Source: Nitrospiraceae bacterium
GTDB taxonomy: Bacteria; Nitrospirota; Nitrospiria; Nitrospirales; Nitrospiraceae
NCBI GenBank assembly: GCA_050246315.1
Contig: JBFWWG010000002.1
Span: 192,001-256,000 of the forward strand
Length of the DNA: 64,000 bases
Direction of reading: 5' to 3'
The notes beneath the pieces were generated by a model. That model saw only the letters and a program-made list of their open reading frames with translations. It searched no databases and was not told the DNA's origin. Shown one piece after another: positions 9,590 through 44,166 of the stretch (the first letter of the stretch is position 1; the number at the start of each line of letters is the position of its first letter). The position numbers and the translations under genes are program-made.

Positions 9590-9740
9590 TGACCCCTCTT
9601 TTTGTAGCATAGACAGGCATGGCCATCAAGGGATTTAACCATTGTACTAGTGAAATAAAATCCTAATATATCACTACGTTACGCTAATCTATCACCTCAG
9701 AGCCGTCACACAGATACGCTGATTCTCCGCAGCAGAGCTG

Positions 9741-10514
9741 TCAGAGGTTTTCATCTCTGATGATGATAGGGTCAACCTGAAGCTCTGCCCCGACCCTGAT
9801 CGCGACAGGTTCTGCCTCCTCTTCCGATCGATACTGCCCCACCTGAACCCGATACCGCCTTCCTTCAGATAAGGTGACTGAAACGATCTGTGCGTCATAG
9901 TGAAGGCTTCGGACCCGATGAAGCAACGCCTTGGCCATCGCAGCATCGGCAAAGGAGCCGACCTGGATCCGCAGATAGCCGGATTGCCAAGCAGGTCCCT
10001 GAAAATCGATCACCCTGAGTTCGACCTCGTCCGTTCCAGGCCCTACCATCCCGATCGCCCTCGCTCCAGCATAGGAGAGGTCCAGAATCCGTCCCTTCGC
10101 AAACGGCCCGCGGTCATTGATCCGAACGGTCACCTCGCGGCCATTGGTCAGGGACCGAATCAAGACGATTGACCCCAGCGGCAAGGTGCGATGGGCCGCA
10201 GTCAATCGGTGCATGTCATACCGCTCACCGTTGGCGGTCTTGTTTCCGTGGAAACCGGGCCCATACCAGGATGCAATCCCGTGCTCGACATAGCCCAGGG
10301 GATACCCAGGCGGATGGATCGTCTTAATCGTCTGATGCGGACTCCCGCAACCCTGGAGAGCCGCAGCTAGGAGAAGCGGCACGACCTTGAGGTATAGCCG
10401 GAACCAAATGAATCGATCAAGAGAGGCTCGATGGCGGAGGATCGCTCTCTGGTCAGACTTCACTGCGTAGATCGCGCAAATTCCGTGAATGGAGAATCGA
10501 GACCTGGCTCGCAC
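9741..10514 (-). CDS. rlpA: Septal ring lytic transglycosylase RlpA (DPBB + SPOR); true start probably downstream of 10514
   Basis: GIASWYGPGFHGNKTANGERYD, TAAHRTLP, INDRGPF, ILDLS; C-terminal SPOR (IQVGSF...YRVQVG); lipobox LQGC. Confidence 0.9.
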   Translation of the reverse strand: MRARSRFSIHGICAIYAVKSDQRAILRHRASLDRFIWFRLYLKVVPLLLAAALQGCGSPHQTIKTIHPPGYPLGYVEHGIASWYGPGFHGNKTANGERYDMHRLTAAHRTLPLGSIVLIRSLTNGREVTVRINDRGPFAKGRILDLSYAGARAIGMVGPGTDEVELRVIDFQGPAWQSGYLRIQVGSFADAAMAKALLHRVRSLHYDAQIVSVTLSEGRRYRVQVGQYRSEEEAEPVAIRVGAELQVDPIIIRDENL

Positions 10515-19345: not shown

Positions 19346-19744
19346 ATTCATGTGGATTCCAGGGAAATCCTGTGAATAGCGCTGAAGGCACTCTAGGCAA
19401 GCATTCCATGACTTTTTTTGGAGGTTATCCCCAGGGGCATGGAGAGAACATGGGACCTTTCCCTATCGGCAAAGGCCATATTTCCATCTTGCCTAGGGAG
19501 ACTGTTCCCTAAGAGAGCAGGGGTACGGGCTCGTCTGAGGGGCTACTCTGACAGGGTCGGTGAGAGCCGACAAATTATGCTGCGGAAGAGACACGCCTGT
19601 CATCATATGCCATATGCCGTGGACAGCGTTTGACAATCCAAGAGCCGCTCAGTAGCCTACCTCCCTCGCGATCCTGGGCTGTGGTCAATGCAACAGCCTG
19701 CCCTGCCCTTTCGTAGTCGCCCTGACAATCAAGAGGAGGTCTTC

Positions 19745-33997: not shown

Positions 33998-34034
33998 GGC
34001 TGCTCGGTTTACGTTGACACAGGAGTAAAGGATG

Positions 34035-34066
34035 AAAAGGGGCCGGCCGCTTGGCCGGCCCCTTTT
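34035..34066. terminator. Bidirectional rho-independent terminator
   Basis: AAAAGGGGCCGGCC-GCTT-GGCCGGCCCCTTTT between convergent lon and DUF4112 genes. Confidence 0.85.
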
Positions 34067-34109
34067 CTCTTGGATCACAAGCCATCAGAGATCGGAGGGA
34101 CCGTCCTGA

Positions 34110-34634
34110 TTATCTGCCCGACACCAGCTTCCAGAGGGCTGCGATCCCCCAGAGCACCAACACGATGGCCCCAAGAACCACAAGCAGCGTGGTGACCGCC
34201 AACGAGAGGACGAAGATCCAATCTTGAAGGGTTGAAGGACGCCGTTCCGCCGTCACATGTCGGCGCAGCAGATCCGCATTCCGGGCATTGCTGCGGAACC
34301 AGACCGAGAACACATCCCCCACGAGCGGTACCGCACCGACAATCGCATTGACGGCCATGTTGGCGGACATCCGAACCAACACGATACGAGGTACCTGAAG
34401 CTTGGCTGCGAGAAGCAGGATCGTTGAACCGATGAGGCCGGCCAACGCATCACCCGCACCGGGCAACAGGCCGAGCAGCGGATCGAGCCCGAATCTGATG
34501 CCGGTGCCTGGGATCCGAAACGACGTATCCAAAATGCGGGCTATCAGGTCCGCAACCCGTCGAAGGTCCTCCCGTTGGTCCTGCGCCGGATCCGGATCAG
34601 CATTGTCGCTCTGCCGGCGGGCCGATTGTTTCAT
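34110..34634 (-). CDS. DUF4112 family membrane protein
   Basis: LDTSFRIPGTGIRFGLDPLLGLLPGAGD, VPLVGD..F..N.RN..LL. Confidence 0.85.
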   Translation of the reverse strand: MKQSARRQSDNADPDPAQDQREDLRRVADLIARILDTSFRIPGTGIRFGLDPLLGLLPGAGDALAGLIGSTILLLAAKLQVPRIVLVRMSANMAVNAIVGAVPLVGDVFSVWFRSNARNADLLRRHVTAERRPSTLQDWIFVLSLAVTTLLVVLGAIVLVLWGIAALWKLVSGR

Positions 34635-34733
34635 CGTCAACCCTTGTGCGAGACTACCGTGGAGGCTGGAAACCTAGAAGCCGACGAGCAAGATCGGTTC
34701 ATCGGCGGTCCAATTCGAGCAGGAGAATGAACC

Positions 34734-35144
34734 ATGGATATTCCCGCAACGATCGTGAAGGTCGTCAAGAGCGATGAGCAATGGCGGCAATCGTTGACTC
34801 AAGAGCAATATCAGGTGCTGCGCAAGGAAGGCACCGAACGGGCCTTCGTCAACGCCTATCATGATAACAAACAGGCCGGCATCTATCACTGCGCCGGGTG
34901 CGACCTCCCCCTCTGGTCCTCCGAGCAGAAGTACGACAGCGGCACCGGCTGGCCGAGTTTTTGGCAGCCGATCGCGCCCCACGTCGTCGCCACCAAGACC
35001 GATTTTCACCTGCTCTATGCCCGCACGGAGGTCCATTGCGCGCGATGCGACGGCCATCAAGGGCATGTCTTCAACGACGGCCCCAGGCCGACGGGGCTCC
35101 GGTATTGCATCAATTCGGCCGCGATCAAGTTCGTCCCGTCGTAG
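34734..35144 (+). CDS. msrB: Peptide-methionine (R)-S-oxide reductase
   Basis: [31 protein letters not shown]. Confidence 0.95.
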
Positions 35145-35166
35145 AAGAGGGGCAGAAAGGAGATGA

Positions 35167-35282
35167 GAAGTCTTATTCAGGGCCTCATTCCCTGGCGATT
35201 AGGAAAGGTTTTCGTGGCAACGCCAAATTATTGAGACTTGGCGGCTCGACGAGCCCCAAACATTGAATCCCGACCCCATTTA
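35167..35282 (+). repeat. 116-bp repeat R1 (ends CCCGACCCCATTTA)
   Basis: Ungapped hand alignment to 40164-40279 gives about 88/116 identities; 3' half also matches 35654-35709. Confidence 0.75.
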
Positions 35283-35452
35283 TTCGACCCCCGGATCTCA
35301 TCCTCGACGACGGTCAGGTACTCGCGAATGGCGTCCTGGATGTTCTGAATAGCCTCCTGCTCCGTCGCGCCTTGGGACCAGCATCCAGGCAGGCCAGGAA
35401 CCGAGACCGCGTAGCCTTCCTCCGATTTGTGAAGGGCGATGCGGTATTTCAT
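35228..35452 (-). pseudogene. hicB: HicB-family antitoxin, apparently 3'-truncated and reading into repeat R1
   Basis: MKYRIALHKSEEGYAVSVPGLPGCWSQGATEQEAIQNIQDAIREYL; after IRG the frame continues into repeat-derived sequence; no hicA seen. Confidence 0.7.
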
Positions 35453-35597
35453 GGTGAACCTCTTTGTGGCAAATCCATCTTGGCCGCCGTTGCGAGGCAA
35501 TGCTTCGCTTGCGGGCCGACTTGAGGACAGTGTATGTATCCATCCAGCGAATGTCCAGGCCAGATGGCCCCTGTGTGGTGTTCGCAAGCGGTGTGGG

Positions 35598-35709
35598 GAG
35601 GTTTAGTGAGGGCTCTAGTTCATGGTGAATAGGGAGTGTTTCCGCGAGGGCGGACTATTGAGTCCTGATATCTCGACGAGTCCCAAACAATGAGTCCCGA
35701 CCCCATTAC
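35598..35709 (+). repeat. ~112-bp repeat R2 (ends CCCGACCCCATTAC)
   Basis: TATTGAGTCCTGATATCTCGACGAGTCCCAAACAATGAGTCCCGACCCCATT matches R1/R3. Confidence 0.7.
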
Positions 35710-35715
35710 TATCAC

Positions 35716-35792
35716 TCTTCAACGACGGCCCCAGGCCGACGGGACTCCGGTATTGCATCAATTCGGCCGCGATCAAGTTCATCCCGTCATGA
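35716..35792 (+). repeat. 77-bp direct-repeat copy of the msrB 3' end (35068-35144)
   Basis: Near-identical; encodes [24 protein letters not shown] versus ...KFVPS* in msrB. Confidence 0.92.
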
Positions 35793-35889
35793 AACTCAGA
35801 ATGCACGTCGTCGAACGTAGTCATGCAGTGATACGTTCCCTATCCATGACGGTTCGTGACACTCTACCCGTTTGATGCACAGAGTAGAT

Positions 35890-36071
35890 GGACGAGAACA
35901 CACGACAGCACTCTTGCGCCCGCGGCGGGGTGAAGCCACGACCGGCTTGATGGGATAGCACCTTATCCATATTCCGACTCCACATTCTCAGCAAGCGACG
36001 CCAGGATATGAAACACTGTCGCCCAGGCCGAAGGCGGCATGAATTTCCTCCACCCTTGCCAAATTGCTCAT
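35890..36071 (-). pseudogene. Decayed SnoaL/NTF2-like gene following an attC
   Basis: GGAGG SD, MSNLARVEEIHAAFGLGD, frameshift to ILASLAENVESEYG*, then WL..PRRGRK fragments. Confidence 0.5.
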
Positions 36072-36104
36072 CTCATGTCGCCTCCGTGGTAACAGATTCT
36101 TGGC

Positions 36105-36164
36105 GCCCAACGGTGGAGTTAATTTGCGGCGCGTAGTGCCGTCGACTTCAACGACTTGTTAGAC
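36105..36164 (-). mobile_element. Integron attC site (60 bp)
   Basis: Minus strand: R'' GTCTAAC, 5 nt, L'' GTTGAAGT, central hairpin, L' AATTAAC, 6 nt, R' GTTGGGC; lies 27 nt past the sirtuin stop. Confidence 0.8.
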
Positions 36165-36191
36165 CCCACTGATTGCGGGGCGCTACTCCCG

Positions 36192-39100
36192 TCACTCTCG
36201 CATGCCGCACCTCCGGAAGTATTCACTTAGTCGCTGGTATCGGGCATCTTGCGCAAGCTGTGGCGCAGCTTGCACGATCTCGTCCAAACATTGCCCCAAC
36301 TCTGGGGGCGCCCACTGTTGATCGCCAATCACAGCATCTAACAGACGCAGAGCATCTGCCGGGAATCGTGCGGACAACCCTGATTCGTGCAGTCGATGTA
36401 CGACGTAATGTGGATGTTCAATGGGTTGCAGCCAGTCTTGCACCGCAGTCAAAGCAGCGGGAAATTCAGTTCGGGCAGCAATGATCAGCCGGGTCAATGA
36501 CTCGCCGATTCGCGGCGTGGCGAGGTTGCGGGACTTGGGCCAAACGTGTTGCCAGAACGGCTGGACCCGGTTCTTCCAATAGTCCTCGCGCTGGTCGGCG
36601 GCTCCTTCTAGGGCCTGAGACAGCGCCTGTGCGCATTCTTCCAGCCCTTCTTGAGGCAGCGCTCCAATCGCAGATCGGAACTCATCCACGGTGTAGCCCT
36701 CGGTCGGCCCGAGCGCTGCGTAAGTCAGGAAAGCTGCGAACTGCTGGCGGTCTTCGCCTAGGTCAGCGTAGTAGTTTGCGCTCTCCAGGAACTGCGGTTT
36801 GAACGCAATCAGCAAGGGCTGATACAAGCGTGGCGACCACAGGAAACCTTCCCACACGGCTTTTGCTTCAACCGGATTGCTCCAACTGAACAGCGGCAAG
36901 AGGTGTTGCTCGGCCCAAGCGCGATCAACGCGGAAGATCGCGATCAATCGCGAACCCAGCAGCACTCGGCCGTGGCGGAACCGATCCACCTGCACATCGC
37001 AGATTTCCGTGAAGAAGGGCTTGATGTCGGTTGGAAGCTGATCGTTGTCGTTCGGATTGCGTTTGAACCAAAGGTTGATCAACGCCTGCGTGACATGCCC
37101 GACCGGATGATTGATGGCTTCGGTAACAGACTGCTCAATCGGTTCCCCATTGCGAGTCATCCCGGTGCCTGCTTCGAGTGGCAGGGCCAGAACTCGGTGG
37201 CACAGGTTCAACAGAATTTCCTCGTGCAGATTGATCGACTTTGAAATGGTCTCAATCCACCACGTCACACCGTGGGCAATCTCCTGAAGCACGGCGTCGG
37301 GCATGGTCTGTACCAGAGGCGCGGCGTAGCGCCACATACGCTGAACCTGTTTCCCATTGCCCCATGCATACAGTGCATCACTCCAGCGACTTTTAAGCCA
37401 ATTTCCCTGCGCAGCCAAATCAGCGAGAGCGAACAAGCAATTCAAAGGGTGCTTTTTGCAGACATCACGCCATGTGTCCTCGTGGAACGGCCGCCGTTCG
37501 GGTTGTGGCTTTGTAAGCCATTGAACGAGTTCACGCCGCTTTCGAGGTGCGATGTCGACATCCCGGCTTTCTTCATAGTCTGGATCGCCAGTGCCGCTCA
37601 TCCAGTGGGAAAACTCGTCACGCTCGTTGGCTGCCACCTGCCATTGCGGGTAGGCATTGGACAGTTCCGCCAAGCGCGCCGCTGCGGGTACCCCCAGGGC
37701 GAGGTCCGAGGCATTCAATTTGGCCAAATGTAGCCAGACTGAACGAGCCACCAAGTCTTGCCACCGTTCCGGTCCCAGATCATCCCGGTACATCTCGCGC
37801 GGCGGGCCGGCCAAGATGGCGGCCTCCAGACGTTCCTGAGCGGCTCCTGCCAATTGGCGCCCCTGCAGAACGAACAGTCTGAACACCTCCCGCCCCGTAT
37901 CGGTGGACCACAGCCACCAGGCGCCATCGGCCAGCAGCCAATCCACCCACTGCTCGGGTGCGATGCACGCCTCCTGGCTGGCAGCAAACAGGGCCAGGCG
38001 CTTGAAGGTGGGATACGGCAACTCGAACCAGGCCTGGGCAATCCGCCTCGCACGAGCACTGTCATTACCGCGAAGCGCCAGCCACGCATCGCGCAGCAAT
38101 TCGATCAGGCTCACCCAGTCGCGGAAACCCCGGTTCTGCCAGTGTGGGGTAATGGACGGTAGATCCCAGTGCGATCGGTCGCTGCGGTCGTCGGCCTCAC
38201 CAAGCTCGCGCAACAAGTCCAGCGCATCACGTAGCAGTTGCTGAAAATCCTCCAGCAGTTGCGGCAAGGCGGATGTCCAGTGCTCGCCGGCAAGGTCGCG
38301 CAGGGCCGAATGCACGTGATTGGCGACCAGCACCAGCTCCCAATCCACCAGTTGCCGCAAGCGCGTGGGTTCGCCCGTGTTCTCTTCCTCGTCGCCCCAA
38401 CGAAACGGCTTCTTCAAGGCCACCTGGGGGGCGAGCAGCTCACGCAACTCCAGGCGCAGCGTGGTGGTCAGCCCCTCCCGCTTCAGCCGACCTTTCCATT
38501 GATAGAGATCGGGATCGTGCCACACTTTTTTCACCCGGCCACTGAGCAGCAGACGCCACAGTGTGCGCATCAAGGGGCCAGGGATGGCCTTGGGCGCCTG
38601 TAAGCGGATTTCATCCCGTTCGGCGGTCTTGCCGTCACGCTCCAGCAAGGCAAAGCGGTCCAGTTCGTCCTCGATCAGCCGCGGCCAGCGGTCATGCAAC
38701 TGGCCGCCACGTTGCGCGATCCAGATGACCAGCCGCGGGTCATCCAGATGGCGCGTGAGCCAGCGGGCCAGATGAACCATCACGTCGTCCCACTGGCTGC
38801 CGGTGACGCCACCGGAGGCCAGCAGCATCGGTGGCGCGCGGTCATAGGGCGCTGGCCGGCGAATCAGGCTGAAACGCAATTTGGCGTCTGCCTCGTCGCG
38901 TGACGGCACGCCGAAGCGAGCCAGATCGCTGTGCTGAAAGCGTTCGTCCGAGAAGGCCTCCAGCAACCAGTCCAGCGAAGGGACGGGGTTGAAGTCGGCA
39001 AAACGTCTGGCCGGCAGTCCCGATTTGTCCGACAAGGCCCACAACATCCGGCCGACGAAATCGTCTTGTTGCGTGCTTGCCGAAGGCCGTGCCAGGGCGT

Positions 39101-40022
39101 GGCTGACGACGATGCGCTCCTTGCCCAGGACGCCGTCGCGGTAGGTGTCCGCCCAGGCGTGCAAGGTTTCATGGAGTGCCGAATGGTCATGACTGCCAGT
39201 GGGTACTTGGTAAAGGATGGGCGTGACGCCCTTGGCTTCCCACTCGATGGTCTTGCGGTGTTCCTGCCCCGGCTCGCAATCGCCCAGCGCCCAGGCTTGC
39301 GGCGTGACTTCGCCCAACATCCGGTCGGCGGCCAGCGCATCCATCATGTAGCGCAACACCGGATCGTTGATGCTGTAGCCCACGAAGCAGACCACGTAGT
39401 TGCGGAACAGCTCGCTGACAAAACGGGCGGCCCAGCGTTCGGTGAGGTAGGCCAGGCCGAAATCGCCGCTGGTGACCACCAGCCGGTTCAGGGCCGTGTC
39501 GTCCTCTTTTTCGGGCAGCAGGCCGTGCAGGTAGACCAGCCCGTTCCAGCGGCTGTTCTTCGGGATCGGCAACATCGGCGCGGCATAGGCCTGGAACGCT
39601 TGGCCTGTGCGCTTAGCCGCCGTATGAAACACGCGGTCGAAGTTGGTGGTGACGAGCCGCAGCGCGCCGGCGCGGCTGCGCGCCAGCCGCAACAGTGCCG
39701 CCTGCGTATCGGTGGCACCCTTGCGGCGCAACTGGGGTTTCAGTGCCTGCGCCAGTGCACGGCGGACGGCCAGCCGCTGCCCAGGCAGGCGCTGCTCTAG
39801 CCGGTCGAGCGTGGCGTCGAACTGCCAACGGTCGAATGCCTCGCGCTCGATGTCCGAGAGCGCTGTGCTGTTCAGCTGGTAGATTTTCTCCACCAGCCCC
39901 TTGAAGTCTGGCAGGCCGGCGGGGTACGAAATGCCCGCGCCGCAGAAAAACACCACGCGACCTTCCTCGTGCGCCTGCAAGAGCGCATCCGGAATATCGG
40001 GGCCGTAGGTGATGAATTGCAT
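36192..40022 (-). CDS. dsr1: Defence-associated sirtuin, Dsr1 type (SIR2 NADase + long helical C-terminus)
   Basis: VFFCGAGIS, TTNFD, YLHG, FVGYSIND SIR2_2 motifs within the first ~230 aa of a 1276-aa protein; N-terminus MQFITYGPDIPDALLQAHEEGRVVFF recognised as Dsr1-like. Confidence 0.8.
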   Translation of the reverse strand: MQFITYGPDIPDALLQAHEEGRVVFFCGAGISYPAGLPDFKGLVEKIYQLNSTALSDIEREAFDRWQFDATLDRLEQRLPGQRLAVRRALAQALKPQLRRKGATDTQAALLRLARSRAGALRLVTTNFDRVFHTAAKRTGQAFQAYAAPMLPIPKNSRWNGLVYLHGLLPEKEDDTALNRLVVTSGDFGLAYLTERWAARFVSELFRNYVVCFVGYSINDPVLRYMMDALAADRMLGEVTPQAWALGDCEPGQEHRKTIEWEAKGVTPILYQVPTGSHDHSALHETLHAWADTYRDGVLGKERIVVSHALARPSASTQQDDFVGRMLWALSDKSGLPARRFADFNPVPSLDWLLEAFSDERFQHSDLARFGVPSRDEADAKLRFSLIRRPAPYDRAPPMLLASGGVTGSQWDDVMVHLARWLTRHLDDPRLVIWIAQRGGQLHDRWPRLIEDELDRFALLERDGKTAERDEIRLQAPKAIPGPLMRTLWRLLLSGRVKKVWHDPDLYQWKGRLKREGLTTTLRLELRELLAPQVALKKPFRWGDEEENTGEPTRLRQLVDWELVLVANHVHSALRDLAGEHWTSALPQLLEDFQQLLRDALDLLRELGEADDRSDRSHWDLPSITPHWQNRGFRDWVSLIELLRDAWLALRGNDSARARRIAQAWFELPYPTFKRLALFAASQEACIAPEQWVDWLLADGAWWLWSTDTGREVFRLFVLQGRQLAGAAQERLEAAILAGPPREMYRDDLGPERWQDLVARSVWLHLAKLNASDLALGVPAAARLAELSNAYPQWQVAANERDEFSHWMSGTGDPDYEESRDVDIAPRKRRELVQWLTKPQPERRPFHEDTWRDVCKKHPLNCLFALADLAAQGNWLKSRWSDALYAWGNGKQVQRMWRYAAPLVQTMPDAVLQEIAHGVTWWIETISKSINLHEEILLNLCHRVLALPLEAGTGMTRNGEPIEQSVTEAINHPVGHVTQALINLWFKRNPNDNDQLPTDIKPFFTEICDVQVDRFRHGRVLLGSRLIAIFRVDRAWAEQHLLPLFSWSNPVEAKAVWEGFLWSPRLYQPLLIAFKPQFLESANYYADLGEDRQQFAAFLTYAALGPTEGYTVDEFRSAIGALPQEGLEECAQALSQALEGAADQREDYWKNRVQPFWQHVWPKSRNLATPRIGESLTRLIIAARTEFPAALTAVQDWLQPIEHPHYVVHRLHESGLSARFPADALRLLDAVIGDQQWAPPELGQCLDEIVQAAPQLAQDARYQRLSEYFRRCGMRE

Positions 40023-40078
40023 TCCTTGTGTTTTCTATCCAATACGCGCGTGCATTCGAGCGACTGAGAGCTCAGTCG

Positions 40079-40138
40079 GTCGAACACTCCCATTGAACGG
40101 CGCCGTGAAGCGCGCCGACCTCGCCCACGTGATTAGGC
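40079..40138 (-). mobile_element. Degenerate attC-like site (60 bp) upstream of the sirtuin gene
   Basis: Minus strand GCCTAAT-CACGT-GGGCGAGG-TCGGCGCGCTTCACGGCGCC-GTTCAAT-GGGAGT-GTTCGAC: same 7/5/8/20/7/6/7 spacing as 36105-36164 but L boxes pair poorly. Confidence 0.5.
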
Positions 40139-40163
40139 GTCGAGCGAAGCAGATGCAGGGTCG

Positions 40164-40279
40164 GAGGTCTTAATCAAGTCCTATCGCCCTGGTGAATTGG
40201 AAATGTTTTCGTGACATCGGCAGATTATTGGGTCTTGGCGTCTTGACGAGCCTCGGAAAATGACTACCGCCCCCATTTA
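40164..40279 (+). repeat. 116-bp repeat R3 (ends ACCGCCCCCATTTA)
   Basis: Homologous to R1 and R2. Confidence 0.75.
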
Positions 40280-40359
40280 ACCATGCAGTTGTTTCAACTG
40301 GGTTTTGACGTCATAATGCGAGTTGTATAGGATCTTAGCCCTTTAAGGGGGAGGACGAT

Positions 40360-40560
40360 ATGTCGACGGCGGAACGCATTTTCAAAGAAGCACAGAAACT
40401 TCCCGATAGGCTAGCGGAAGAGGTACTGGATTTTATCAAGTACATTGAACTGAGGCACGGACTGAGAGACCGACTCACTGAAGAACTGAAACGGGCGCAG
40501 GAACCGGCCATGCGCCATGTGTGGGACAACATCGAAGACGAGGTTTGGGATGGCGTGTAA
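40360..40560 (+). CDS. DUF2281-like putative antitoxin
   Basis: LPDRLAEEVLDFIKYI and C-terminal WDNIEDEVWD; GGAGG SD; overlaps the toxin start. Confidence 0.7.
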   Translation: MSTAERIFKEAQKLPDRLAEEVLDFIKYIELRHGLRDRLTEELKRAQEPAMRHVWDNIEDEVWDGV

Positions 40561-40888
40561 GCCCGGCGATCTTGTTTTGATTCCATTTCCGTTCTCCGAT
40601 CTGCAATCGACGAAGAAGCGCCCTGTAATGGTCTTAACCGCACCGGATCGACATGCCGACTTCATTGAATTGGCCCTCACTTCGGTCCCGCAGCAGACCC
40701 ACGCCCTTCAAGTTGATTCAGCCAGCATGACGGAAGGGATACTCCCTAAACTGTGCTGGATCAGGTTCGACAAAGTCTTCACCCTTTCCGAGAGCAGCAT
40801 CATCAAAACCTTTGGTAAATTATCCTCACAGACGTTGCAGAGCGTGTTGCAAGGACTCTGTTCTGTCGTGGGATACGGTCCCAGATAA
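40550..40888 (+). CDS. PemK/MazF-family toxin
   Basis: GDLVLIPFPFSDLQSTKKRPVMVL, LTS, IRFDKVFTL. Confidence 0.85.
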   Translation: MACKPGDLVLIPFPFSDLQSTKKRPVMVLTAPDRHADFIELALTSVPQQTHALQVDSASMTEGILPKLCWIRFDKVFTLSESSIIKTFGKLSSQTLQSVLQGLCSVVGYGPR

Positions 40889-40963
40889 CCCCGATTCGAC
40901 GATGTCACCACCGCTTGCCTCCCTGCTCGCGGTTTCTTCACGAACCGTCACGAATAATGTGGA

Positions 40964-42103
40964 CTACGTGGAGCGCATCTCCCACTGATTGCCCATCATG
41001 CCCACTTTGTTGCGATGTCGCCGAAGATCGTCGTGCGGCATGCTGTCGATGCTCATGCGGATATCCGCGTTCACATGACCCACTAGATAGTAACTATGTT
41101 CGACCAGACCCTTCACGATGCTTGTGCAGTCGATCTGGTGCACCTTGTTATGCACCAGTGTCGGCCGGGCCGGGCCGTTCGATCCCAATCGGTCGGGATT
41201 GCCTTTGGTATAGTCCGAGACGACCAATGCCGCGTCGCCACGGTTATAATAGACGCTCACGCTTCTGCCGAACTCGTGGAGTCGCCCCAGTGGGTGCCCC
41301 TCTTCCAATGCCGTATCGTCCACGTCGGGAGAGCAGAGAAAGATGTGTTCGAACAGACGAGGCAATGCGTTCCCCGGTGTGAAAGCGTCGCACCGTGTGA
41401 GCGCGTTTTGCAATAGATAGTTGCCCATGGAATGACACAACAGATGGAGATCCTGCTTGCAGAGCTCCTCCTCCGAACGACGCAGACTCGCGAGAAAATC
41501 CCGCACCTTCAGAATCCCGCGCCCCACCGCGTTGCCTGAACCGGCCGCCTCCGACCGGTCCGATTTGTAGGACACGAAGGGTAGCGCCATCCCGTCAGAC
41601 GGCCAACTGAACAGCACCACCTGCACATGCTGTTTCGGATCCCCCTCTGGACAATGATTCAGCATTTCCTGGAGCGACAGGGCCGAGCCGACCGCGTCAA
41701 CCCAGGAGACGTTGAAGCCATGGATATAGATCAGCACATCCGTATTCTTGAACATGATCGCTTGCAGATCGGAAAACGCCGCCTGCGATCCCAACTTGAT
41801 CTTCTCCTGTTGACCCTCCGCGACGGATCGATCGATCTTTTCGCGATAGGCGACAATGTCGGCGGACTCAGCGCACTTGGAGAGATATTTGATCAAGCCC
41901 TCGCCGTTCCCCTGTCCCATGATCCCGCAGTCCGCATCCAAGAACTTGGCCATCTTGGCCTCATCGGCCTCCACGGTCAGCCTGCCGAAACGGAGGTTCT
42001 CAACCCCGTCGTCGCTGAATTTCTTGCCGTAGCCGTCGGGGTGCCAGCGGTCCTTGCCGAGGTAATTGCGGTTGGTTGCGTAGAAGAGTTCTAGCTCGGT
42101 CAT
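40964..42103 (-). CDS. DUF900-type alpha/beta hydrolase
   Basis: FYATNR, IYIHGFNV, FSWPS, HSMGN nucleophile, PDVD, RLG, HSYY. Confidence 0.85.
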   Translation of the reverse strand: MTELELFYATNRNYLGKDRWHPDGYGKKFSDDGVENLRFGRLTVEADEAKMAKFLDADCGIMGQGNGEGLIKYLSKCAESADIVAYREKIDRSVAEGQQEKIKLGSQAAFSDLQAIMFKNTDVLIYIHGFNVSWVDAVGSALSLQEMLNHCPEGDPKQHVQVVLFSWPSDGMALPFVSYKSDRSEAAGSGNAVGRGILKVRDFLASLRRSEEELCKQDLHLLCHSMGNYLLQNALTRCDAFTPGNALPRLFEHIFLCSPDVDDTALEEGHPLGRLHEFGRSVSVYYNRGDAALVVSDYTKGNPDRLGSNGPARPTLVHNKVHQIDCTSIVKGLVEHSYYLVGHVNADIRMSIDSMPHDDLRRHRNKVGMMGNQWEMRST

Positions 42104-42118
42104 GCTCGTGGCTCCTTA

Positions 42119-42357
42119 GCGCGCATTATTCATGAACGCTGTTATTGCAATTGCGGATTCGCTGCTGGGCACCCATTGCTCCAAGATTGCAATGGGTCCC
42201 GGCCTGCGTGCGGAGTTTCAGCACGCAAGAGAGCGGGCTCGCCGCTCGGTCGGTCAACATACTGTTTCAAGTATGCCTCCCTCCTTCGCGGCTCCACGCG
42301 CCCGTCTCGCGACGCGACCCCACAATTTCGCGACAAACCGTCATGAATAATGCGCGC
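42119..42357 (-). mobile_element. MITE-like element, copy B (239 bp)
   Basis: Perfect 17-bp terminal inverted repeats GCGCGCATTATTCATGA (42119-42135) / TCATGAATAATGCGCGC (42341-42357); no credible ORF; similar to copy A. Confidence 0.75.
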
Positions 42358-42477
42358 CGCATATCGTGAAATGCTGTCACCGGCGCCGGCGGCGCTCGGC
42401 GAGATGTCCATATCGGCTTCGACGACTGAAGTCAAGAACGAGCTGTCTGGATGCGCTCCACGAGCAATCGACTCGTC

Positions 42478-43359
42478 CTATCCCTCCTCCGATCGAGCAG
42501 GCGAGATCACTTCGTACAGTGCGGAATAGTCCGCATCGCCCCATCCTTGACCGACGGCCTCAGATATGAGTGATCGCACTCCGTCCAACCCGCCGGTCTG
42601 TAGATTCAGACTCTCCGCCGCTTCTCGGCAGAGATCGATGTCCTTCAACAGATGCCGAGCGGAGAAATTCGGATTGTCGTACTGCCGGTTGAGGAGCCGC
42701 GGTAATTTCTTCTCGAACATGGGTGCGAACAACGCACTGTCGCGCAACAGCGTCATGAACGATTCCACCGGAACACCGGACCGTTGAATCATCGCCAAAC
42801 TAAGTGACAGGGCCGCGATATGCGAGGCGATCAATTGATTGAGCGCCAGCTTCACCAGAGCCGCCCGTCCGACCGGTCCGATCCAGCGAGGGTGAGGGCC
42901 GAAGCAGCCTAACAACCCCTGCCATGCGGCAAACTGTTCGGGGCTCGCTCCGACCATCACGAGCAGCCGACCTTCCTTCGCCTCGGCAAGGCTCCCAAGA
43001 ACCGGAGCCTCCAGGTAGTCGCCACCGAGCGCGGCGATTTTCCGCCCGCAGGTACGGCTTTCGTCGGGACCGATCGTTCCCATCTGGATCACGGTCTTTT
43101 CGTTCAAGACCGACGGTCCATCCAACAGATCCAACACGGCATGGATCGCCTGCGCATCCGCCAGCATCAGGATGATCACCCGTGCCTCCTGGATCGCCTG
43201 GATGGGATGTCCGGCCACCGGTATCCCTTGTCGCCGCAGGTCCTCAACCTTCCGACTCGTTCGATTGTAGAGACGCACGTCGTAGCCGCAGGCCTTGAGA
43301 CGCAGCGCCAACGGCCTCCCCATCAATCCTCCGCCCAGCACAGCAACCGTTACTGACAC
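42478..43359 (-). CDS. 3-hydroxyisobutyrate dehydrogenase-family NAD(P)-dependent oxidoreductase
   Basis: GGGLMG, YNRT, EAPVLGS, KLALNQ, KDIDL. Confidence 0.88.
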   Translation of the reverse strand: MSVTVAVLGGGLMGRPLALRLKACGYDVRLYNRTSRKVEDLRRQGIPVAGHPIQAIQEARVIILMLADAQAIHAVLDLLDGPSVLNEKTVIQMGTIGPDESRTCGRKIAALGGDYLEAPVLGSLAEAKEGRLLVMVGASPEQFAAWQGLLGCFGPHPRWIGPVGRAALVKLALNQLIASHIAALSLSLAMIQRSGVPVESFMTLLRDSALFAPMFEKKLPRLLNRQYDNPNFSARHLLKDIDLCREAAESLNLQTGGLDGVRSLISEAVGQGWGDADYSALYEVISPARSEEG

Positions 43360-43371
43360 GGCACCCTCCGA

Positions 43372-44166
43372 TTACTTTGGCAGCAACGCAATGACCCGCA
43401 CCGGTCCTCCGCTCCCGCCTTTGATCTTCATCGGTAACAGGATCAGCGTGGCGCCCTTCGGGGGAAGCCTTTCCAGATTGGCGAGGTTCTCCAAGCCATA
43501 GAGGTTTGCTCCGTTGACAACCTGGTGAACAATAAAATCTCCCGACGGCCCATGGTCTATGCTGGCCGTGTCGATGCCGATTCCGTCGATCCGACGCTCC
43601 GTCGTCAGATAGGCCGCTGCCTCCTTGGAAAACCCTGGAAAGTGCAGAGTGGCGGCGTCGTCGGGCGTCATGCTGCCCAGGTAGGCCGATCGGTCCGGCC
43701 AGAAGCGCCCCCAGCCGGTTCTCATCAAGACAATCGCTCCATCGGGAATCCTGCCATGAGCCTGCTCCCAAGTTCGGATGTCGTCGATCGTCATGCGATA
43801 GTCCCGATCCTGCCTCGCCGCCTCCGACACATCGATCACGACCGCGGGACCGATCAGATTCTGAAGCGGGATGGCGTCCAACGTCATCCCTTCCTTGGCA
43901 AAGTGAATCGGAGCGTCGAGATGCGTTCCTCCATGCTCCGCAGTACAGAATTGCGCCGAGGCGTACCAGTATCCCCCCGGGGAGGAACCCCACGAAGTCT
44001 GTTCCCAAGCGAAGGGCTTGTTGTGGGGCCAGTAGATCGTCTGTTCATCGAAGGGATAGGTGAGGTCAATGAGAGTCCGCTCATCAAGCTCGGCCAAAGC
44101 CGAGGACGCGAGCACGACCATCAAGGCCAGACTCATGAGAACGGACCGATCAATCGTTCGTGCCAT
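43372..44166 (-). CDS. Secreted cyclase/kynurenine-formamidase-family metallohydrolase
   Basis: EHGGTHLDAPIHF, GIDTASID, ENL, GGSGGPVR; signal peptide. Confidence 0.85.
   Translation of the reverse strand: MARTIDRSVLMSLALMVVLASSALAELDERTLIDLTYPFDEQTIYWPHNKPFAWEQTSWGSSPGGYWYASAQFCTAEHGGTHLDAPIHFAKEGMTLDAIPLQNLIGPAVVIDVSEAARQDRDYRMTIDDIRTWEQAHGRIPDGAIVLMRTGWGRFWPDRSAYLGSMTPDDAATLHFPGFSKEAAAYLTTERRIDGIGIDTASIDHGPSGDFIVHQVVNGANLYGLENLANLERLPPKGATLILLPMKIKGGSGGPVRVIALLPK

Follow-up and report, generated by a model that had tools for sequence, protein, structure and literature searches.

How does a large sirtuin gene of phage defence come to lie between two integron recombination sites where no integron integrase is encoded nearby, and can it still leave? 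The question is raised by a 64,000-nt stretch of a Nitrospiraceae bacterium (GenBank assembly GCA_050246315.1, contig JBFWWG010000002.1, positions 192,001 to 256,000), the whole of which is called here the window, and by its gene dsr1, which a sequence-only reading had proposed to be the cargo of an unusually large, possibly mobilisable gene cassette with an attC site behind it and a degenerate one ahead of it. We find that the unit is a genuine integron gene cassette with a full-length dsr1 as its only cargo. The items described earlier from the letters (the gene, both flanking sites and the counts of paired R-box bases) are all present, and the cassette interpretation is now carried by a hit of an attC covariance model and by matching boundaries in relatives of the gene.

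Since Rfam holds no attC family, we built a covariance model of our own, R1. Using the IntI protein encoded on contig C1 of the window's genome, 80 intI loci were gathered from other genomes, and sites matching the R''/R' consensus and folding with paired ends were taken as training candidates. The final training set, from which the window and every dsr1 locus were excluded, comprised 16 distinct sites of 57–73 nt from 9 intI loci, three of the sites adjoining the C1 intI. RNAalifold recovered from their alignment the expected R-box and bulged L-box helices, with 15 pairs, 8 of which showed compensatory changes. R1 generalises: in 82 loci (the 80 intI-flanking ones and two regions of the window's own genome) it found 156 sites (E ≤ 0.05), spread over 36 loci, just 16 of them being training rows. 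A strict motif-plus-fold harvest had yielded few sites (7 in the dsr1 loci, 52 in the 80 intI loci) and was replaced by the model. Strand assignment by bulge counts was also dropped, as it proved wrong for loci L115 and L080 and for one site of the window's genome; these sites were instead given the orientation of similar neighbours, of the same type or in the same array.

The site downstream of dsr1, which begins 27 nt past the stop codon, is the single significant R1 hit in the window. It scored 35.6 bits over the full model (positions 1–68; E 1.6e-6 in the 64-kb search), and the runner-up reached 13.0 bits (E 0.47). With the filters off, a search of 34000–44000 left the hit unchanged and gave 8.7 bits on the opposite (plus) strand against 35.6 on the strand of the gene. 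In the whole 4.39-Mb genome the site has an E-value of 1.1e-4 and ranks eighth of 15 hits at E ≤ 1, and its score is mid-range among the 156 sites mentioned above. The window contains the strict pattern RYYYAAC-N-GTTRRRY just twice, and an Rfam search of the window returned two tRNAs only. The R'' box GTCTAAC pairs at 5 of 7 positions with its own R' and at 6 of 7 with the upstream R' (GTTCGAC), so that our recount agrees with the earlier one. Moreover, it pairs at 7 of 7 positions with GTTAGAC, a core found 5' of dsr1 in relatives, as is expected if the cassette circle closed between the G and the TT of the core.

Boundaries at the same places in other genomes are the second line of evidence. 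A scan of one genome per species gave 28 loci encoding dsr1 relatives, with best-segment identities of 51–89% and hosts that, by record titles, include Nitrospira, Betaproteobacteria, Phycisphaerales, Desulfobacteraceae, Pseudomonas, Anaerolineales, Heliomicrobium and Acidobacteriota. The 5' end is available for 22 relatives, of which 7 (L009, L014, L017, L022, L029, L030 and L032) have a GTTAG(A/G/C)C core about 49–57 nt ahead of the ATG and resemble the window from this core onwards. Five of these (L009, L014, L017, L030 and L032) share with the window a conserved, alignable leader from core to ATG, and their sequence 5' of the core is unrelated. At the other end, a 3' flank is available for 27 relatives, and in 7 of these the conserved 3' untranslated region (UTR) leads into an R''-type box, as the exact GTCTAAC in L014, L028, L030 and L032 and as a variant in L009, L017 and L029. 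The two sets of seven overlap, and the flanks beyond are unrelated. R1 scored the dsr1-proximal attC of L014 at 54.6 bits and that of L028 at 42.1 bits, and in L017/L126 (23.3 bits) and L029 (24.7 bits) the 5' core is itself the last box of an R1-scored upstream attC.

One locus shows the gene beside an integrase remnant. In L129 (Phycisphaerales), tblastn with the IntI of the window's genome detected a frame-shifted, C-terminal intI remnant (9613–9826) lying 175 bp 5' of the dsr1 core, and four attC hits follow that core on the same strand; dsr1 is there the first cassette of a degraded integron. About 120 nt between the intI remnant and the dsr1 core (L129 9860–9980; L014 10269–10394) recur once more within the array. 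Among the genomes with a cassette-type dsr1, all five that were tested have an intI above the TIGR02249 cut-off, one with an internal stop. The attC that follows dsr1 in L014 (7858–7917) is nearly identical, with a few differences in 60 nt by eye, to a site at 19692–19751 of L052, an integron array of Candidatus Eisenbacteria. In the window, L028 and L009, the attC interior behind the same R'' is unlike that of L014, so the same gene travels with different attC interiors.

Several cassette-type copies are damaged: the attC of L009 is degenerate, L030 is cut off after R'', and L032 carries an internal attC deletion. Crossovers at R'' had been considered for the relatives whose similarity is lost right behind GTCTAAC; for L032, the deletion fits better (R'' followed by TCCAAC and GTTATGA). 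In L028 dsr1 is present as three gene fragments separated by about 1.3 and 1.7 kb, and the early stops in dsr1 of L029 and L032 are possibly assembly errors. Searches with the 5'-junction motif returned only five already known loci from genome contigs and, from metagenome contigs, one contig whose inspected flanks (about 190 nt per junction) closely match L030.

The site upstream of dsr1, ending 56 nt ahead of the ATG, is a decayed attC, since it aligns to a genuine attC found elsewhere on the window's own contig (C2:427424–427498; R1 score 37.9 bits), apart from a single gap of 15 nt in its 5' arm. Its best non-self blastn match in the 4.39-Mb genome (18 of 18 nt, E 0.005) falls inside that same attC, in the same orientation. 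The R'' of the relic ends in T rather than C, and its core GTTCGAC is one base off the consensus GTTRRRY. The degenerate site of 60 bp at about 56 bp from the ATG that had been described earlier does exist, and is decayed; the identical spacing then noted for the two flanks is a coincidence, since the upstream one aligns to a 75-nt attC with 15 nt deleted.

The ends of the cassette, placed at the crossover points of the two R' cores (Table 1), agree with the junction alignments against relatives. The unit is large, as had been suspected: consecutive same-strand R1 hits in the 36 integron loci with such hits are spaced at a median of 562 bp (n = 119; 95th percentile 2682 bp), one seventh of the size of the cassette, and only 3 of the 119 intervals are as long, of which at least one spans an intI gene and any may conceal a missed site. 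GC content is no marker of the cassette (0.58–0.65 within, 0.59–0.62 outside). Directly after the R' core lies a short palindrome in the leader (40062–40075 in the window), which reads ACTGAGATCTCAGT in L017 and L032, CTGAGATCTCAG in L030 and ACTGAGCTCTCAGT in the window; its role may be that of an operator or a hairpin, or it may simply reflect common ancestry.

Table 1. Features of the dsr1 cassette and of the segment around it (window positions).
Feature	Start	End	Strand	Description
Cassette	36111	40084	-	3974 bp, one open reading frame (ORF); ends are the crossover points, between G and TT, of each R' core
Cassette's own attC	36105	36164	-	60 nt; R'' GTCTAAC, L''/L' with bulged base, R' GTTGGGC; distal stem eroded
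3' UTR	36165	36191	-	27 nt, stop codon to R''; conserved to R'' in L028, L014, L017, L030, L032 and L009
dsr1	36192	40022	-	1276 aa, defence-associated sirtuin 1; sole ORF of the cassette
5' UTR	40023	40078	-	56 nt; inverted repeat ACTGAG..CTCAGT, AAGGA ribosome-binding site
Relic attC	40079	40138	-	60 nt; R'' GCCTAAT, R' GTTCGAC (40085–40079); crossover G at 40085
Variable segment with the cassette	35145	40964		5.8 kb; absent from same-genus genome G001
HicB-like orphan antitoxin	35228	35452	-	Pfam HicB_lk_antitox, E 7.5e-10, on ORF 35228–35587; internal start MKYRIALH
Toxin-antitoxin pair	40360	40888	+	DUF2281-like antitoxin 40360–40560, PemK/MazF-like toxin 40517–40888 (Pfam)

Judged by its sequence, the product of dsr1 belongs to the Dsr1 family, as the sequence-only reading had proposed, and is a full-length member with the SIR2 catalytic residues intact. 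The PADLOC profile of Dsr1 (PDLC02183) matches the protein end to end with 2431.8 bits (residues 1–1272 on profile positions 1–1273 of 1275), and Pfam places SIR2_2 at residues 123–269 (E 1.9e-22). The motifs GAGIS (28–32), TTN (N127) and LHG (H166) are present. Among solved structures the protein matches small SIR2 NADases only, and in the alignment with KomC (8zsf) all three motifs coincide, H166 falling on the catalytic H146, the residue changed in the structure entry 9xvc, "KomC(H146N)". Beyond the SIR2 domain, no Pfam family was found over about 1000 C-terminal amino acids. The unbroken relatives (n = 17) measure 1264–1287 aa, hence the window copy is not a shortened version. By analogy with other Dsr1 proteins, phage infection would switch on the N-terminal SIR2 domain, which would then degrade NAD+ and stop phage replication, the long C-terminal part being the presumed sensor.

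The sigma-70 scan gave no promoter on the dsr1 strand, a scan that is uninformative for this organism, and the gene may be transcribed from within the 337 bp that separate it from the toxin-antitoxin operon. RNA-library contigs from 4 of 4 runs, each of another study, match dsr1 without differences; one contig (40000–40221) covers the ATG, leader, core and relic, and another (36018–36295) covers the stop and the attC. These contigs give a weak hint of dsr1 transcription, and the parts of the stretch that no RNA contig covers have no bearing on the matter.

As for the integrase, neither the TIGR02249 profile (none of the genome's 8 matches lies within C2:192001–256000) nor tblastn with both IntI proteins had a match in the window, and neither intI nor another tyrosine recombinase was detected there, in line with the original description of the locus. 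Across the genome, the search for intI revealed two intact genes without stops, on contigs C1 and C8 (462.7 and 462.4 bits, above the TIGR02249 cut-off), and thus a helper in trans exists. Elsewhere in the genome, R1 hits are grouped next to the intI genes of C1 and C8 and at C2:426164–428719. Strictly, the class of CALIN (cluster of attC sites lacking integron integrases), which the sequence-only reading had named, does not fit: the window has one R1-scored site and a relic, short of the two scored sites that the class takes, and the unit is better described as a SALIN (single attC site lacking an integron integrase).

The two complete integrons of the genome have opposite layouts. That of C1 (C1:505910–516426) encodes a 411-aa IntI with an N-terminal extension, followed by attC sites on the same strand with an rve transposase ORF between them; that of C8 (C8:83078–85871) encodes a 340-aa IntI with its attC sites upstream on the other strand, the classical divergent layout. 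C2:426164–428719, on the contig of the window, is a five-site attC cluster without intI. Lone attC hits lie at C5:132981–133040, C1:377543–377605 and C16:37671–37734, the one on C5 at about 600 bp from an 84-aa intI fragment (C5:132231–132365).

Taken together, we consider it quite probable that the unit is a genuine 3974-bp dsr1 cassette which an integron integrase once placed into a resident attC and which is now decaying and largely fixed in place. On this account, an integrase would have inserted the circular cassette at the resident site, giving the order of relic attC, TTCGAC with the 56-nt leader, dsr1 and the cassette's own attC. Lying outside both integrons, the unit would since have been decaying as a mobile unit; the upstream attC would have lost 15 nt and had its core mutated, while the cassette's own attC would have kept its boxes and spacing and lost most of its hairpin stability, leaving the cassette largely fixed.

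A number of observations weigh against this account or parts of it. R1 is a home-made model from 16 short sites and not the one of IntegronFinder, and its E-values are rough. The upstream site gave no R1 hit even without filters, only a 4.5-bit fragment at 40123–40138. The bottom strand of the cassette's own attC folds at −8.3 kcal/mol (z −0.45), 64 of 200 shuffles folding equally well, and the top strand has a z of 0.96. By comparison, −16 and −20.6 kcal/mol (z −3.7 and −3.6) were obtained for two sites next to the C1 intI and −19.8 kcal/mol (z −3.4) for the dsr1 attC of L014. To call the downstream site well-formed, as was once done, is therefore an overstatement: it retains its boxes, spacing and bulge, and the R and L boxes can pair, but its distal stem is eroded. 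No attC or intI lies nearer than about 198 kb on the contig, the nearest attC belonging to the five-site cluster. The GTTAG(A/G/C)C core is lacking in 15 of the 22 relatives with a 5' end, close ones included, and in the nucleotide tree the 7 cassette rows sit in a 12-row clade (Shimodaira–Hasegawa-like approximate likelihood ratio test 98) together with 5 rows without attC flanks. The tree, which has 26 rows (L028 and the short fragments L034–L036 being excluded) and in which the cassette label needs 4 changes, is unrooted and silent on the older state. The outer breakpoints of the locus (35145, 35966 and 40964) do not coincide with attC cores, and so the cassette may have come inside a larger piece by another route. 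Finally, the RNA-library contigs are only a hint because DNA carry-over is possible.

Some of the relatives without attC have a context of their own. In L013 the dsr1 gene follows hsdR (represented by its C-terminus), hsdM and hsdS, its start overlapping the end of hsdS (L013 50–4013), and close relatives without attC stand directly after a type I restriction-modification operon in L013 (checked with Pfam) and, by their flanks, also in L015, L020 and L026. The gene family thus also travels in a second kind of defence locus. In L122, from a genome (G025) of the same order as that of the window, dsr1 has 77% nucleotide identity over the ORF only, with no common flanks and no attC hit.

The route of arrival is where the insertion account is most seriously challenged. 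The unit is absent from two genomes of the same genus (G001 and G002), which points to a recent gain. In G001 msrB and the DUF900 gene are 91 bp apart; in G002, whose flanks are 97% identical, a methyltransferase ORF takes the place of dsr1 and of the toxin-antitoxin pair, homology breaks at 35966, and the HicB-like stretch is absent. The simplest route is the insertion of a circle at a resident lone attC, now the relic. The main alternative is that integrase had no part in the integration here, and that the cassette came within a block of about 5.8 kb (HicB, cassette and toxin-antitoxin pair) from another strain by homologous or illegitimate recombination, with its two attC sites as passengers. 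We regard this as the less probable course, and still as a serious contender, for the breakpoints against G001 (35145, 40964) and G002 (35966) fall outside the attC cores, the cargo of the locus differs in each of the three genomes of the genus, and a single RNA-library contig of a G002-like strain also stops matching at 35966. Yet the Pfam hits of the ORFs between 19688 and 57779 include no transposase or other recombinase, and in 19 loci the toxin-antitoxin pair occurs without the flanks of the window, which argues that the 5.8-kb block is not a conserved unit. Even if a block did arrive, the cassette nature of the unit would be unchanged.

On its left the segment is flanked by lon, a DUF4112 gene and msrB, and on its right by the DUF900 hydrolase gene and metabolic genes. 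The toxin-antitoxin pair is divergent from dsr1, with a promoter-like site on the plus strand at 40305–40333. It had been considered as an upstream cassette, and this idea was dropped, with no attC hits and no common flanks in the 19 loci examined out of 22 (18 with Nitrospira or Nitrospirota titles, one Rhodospirillaceae), where the gene pair (40286–40888 at most) is all that is shared with the window. No Pfam family was found for the small ORFs at 35615–35824 and 35821–35994, between the attC and hicB. Further along, an ORF of 97 aa that is probably spurious (42142–42435) contains a repeat of about 125 bp (42233–42357). The genome and most others of its family carry many copies of this repeat at 80–96% identity, and one copy lies beside the C1 intI (C1:517347–517466).

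Whether the cassette is still mobile, as had also been suggested, was the other part of our question. An IntI of the genome would in that case excise it in trans, recombining the upstream site with the cassette's own attC, and this we find doubtful. Two intact integrases are available, the cassette's own attC keeps a consensus R''/R', the spacing, the bulged L box and a mid-range score, and a single low-depth RNA-library contig from one run stops matching the window at 40129, a hint that the upstream context varies within that community. However, excision needs two folded partners, and the upstream one has its 15-nt deletion, a GTTCGAC core, a GCCTAAT R'' and no score, whereas the downstream one is far less stable (−8.3 kcal/mol, z −0.45) than the sites beside intI (−16 to −20.6 kcal/mol). 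Moreover, all 14 DNA runs (6 studies) that contain the stretch, from wastewater, sludge, bioreactor, landfill and aquatic metagenomes, contain all the sampled words of 35800–40500, although the source sample may be among them. Size counts as well: in the main text of a report on an integrase-based capture tool, recovery fell with cassette size, and a 4-kb cassette, lengthened by an inserted insertion sequence, was the only one not recovered (10.64898/2026.03.17.712381). Excision at present thus appears unlikely: the upstream site has lost 15 nt and has a mutated core, and the fold of the cassette's own attC is no more stable than those of its shuffled versions. The unit has probably reached the end of its mobile life, given a broken partner site, the poor fold of its own site and the poor recombination of large cassettes.

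It is very improbable that the flanking sites are a terminator or palindromes that arose by chance, and that dsr1 is an island gene like others, without any integron past: the hairpin is indeed weak, the upstream site fails the model and many close relatives lack attC (e.g. L013, behind its restriction-modification operon), but the R1 hit (E 1.1e-4 genome-wide) lies exactly at the 3' end of the gene and on its strand, no terminator-like site was found on the minus strand at the locus, and the same boundaries recur in other phyla, including L014 with its 54.6-bit attC and an intI remnant beside the gene.

Closely related dsr1 copies are found across several phyla at 80–88% nucleotide identity, and the cassette lineage (the same 5' core and leader, with an R''-type box after the same 3' UTR) is represented, by record titles, in Nitrospirota, Planctomycetota, Desulfobacterota, Pseudomonadota, Fermentibacterota and perhaps Chloroflexota. 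We lean, by a little, towards the view that full-length defence genes of about 4 kb can be carried by integrons from one phylum to a distant one, and that the attC then decays in most hosts, fixing the genes as chromosomal defence. If this is true, integrons would be a route by which large defence genes are delivered to sites beyond integrons, and the rule that integron defence cargo is streamlined only would have exceptions; if the spread across phyla was mediated by integrons, the limit on the size of cassette cargo would be softer than assumed. Surveys that require two scored attC sites would miss stranded cassettes of such a kind. The loci also form a natural series for study, from an intact attC (L014) through weakened ones (the window, L028) to deleted ones (L032, L030), and the way in which cassettes lose their mobility could be traced along it. 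As regards this one genome, the outcome is an ordinary annotation, that of one Dsr1 defence gene of cassette origin.

It remains to compare the locus with what is known. Starting with the protein, a DSR1, a name credited to Gao et al. 2020 as cited in 10.1101/2021.12.14.472415, protected Bacillus subtilis from phi29 in the experiments described there, with a transient drop of NAD+ and no collapse of the culture (10.1101/2021.12.14.472415). The window protein resembles it by a whole-length match to the Dsr1 profile and by an N-terminal SIR2 domain with the catalytic His and Asn; it differs in being known from sequence alone, whereas the tested one went through phage and NAD+ assays, and a defence activity of the window gene is what membership of the family would predict.

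With regard to integrons, recent work has already established that their cassettes carry defence systems (main texts of 10.1101/2024.07.02.601719, 10.1101/2024.07.02.601686 and 10.64898/2026.03.17.712381). The dsr1 unit is alike in kind to the reported phage-defence cassettes of mobile integrons (BRiCs) and to those of sedentary chromosomal integrons, being one defence system between attC boundaries, promoterless and with a short leader. The main text of Darracq et al. describes integron defence systems as having at most 2 components and as being shorter than the same types elsewhere, and ties this shortness to size constraints on cassette recombination (10.1101/2024.07.02.601686). Unlike the small "streamlined" cassettes so described, the window gene is full length (1276 aa against a profile of 1275 positions) in a cassette of 3974 bp. 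The hosts differ too, in so far as the main texts go: those of the window type are environmental by record titles (Nitrospira-like, Planctomycetota, Desulfobacterota and others), whereas the reported defence cassettes come from Vibrio and clinical plasmids. We found no report of Dsr1 on a cassette, "Dsr" and "Sir2" being absent from the main texts of the three papers cited at the head of this paragraph, whose supplementary tables could list it.

The locus also resembles the CALIN and SALIN classes, which are defined in the main text of 10.1101/2024.07.02.601686 as attC sites without intI, one site being the threshold for a SALIN and at least 2 for a CALIN; it has an attC with no intI beside it, a classification that here rests on our own model R1. 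A precedent is the Tragantia homologue in Marinobacter, which the main text of Kieffer et al. places outside an integron with a pseudo-attC (10.1101/2024.07.02.601719). As far as that text describes it, both cases join a defence gene that lies outside an integron, although close to a cassette-borne one, with a degenerate attC, and a complete integron and a CALIN are present elsewhere in the genome; the dsr1 unit belongs to another defence family, its own attC still scores with a model, and both of its boundaries are mapped to the base through relatives. The kind, a defence cassette, is thus already known, and what is new is the Dsr1 cargo, its size and the presence of one cassette lineage over several phyla.

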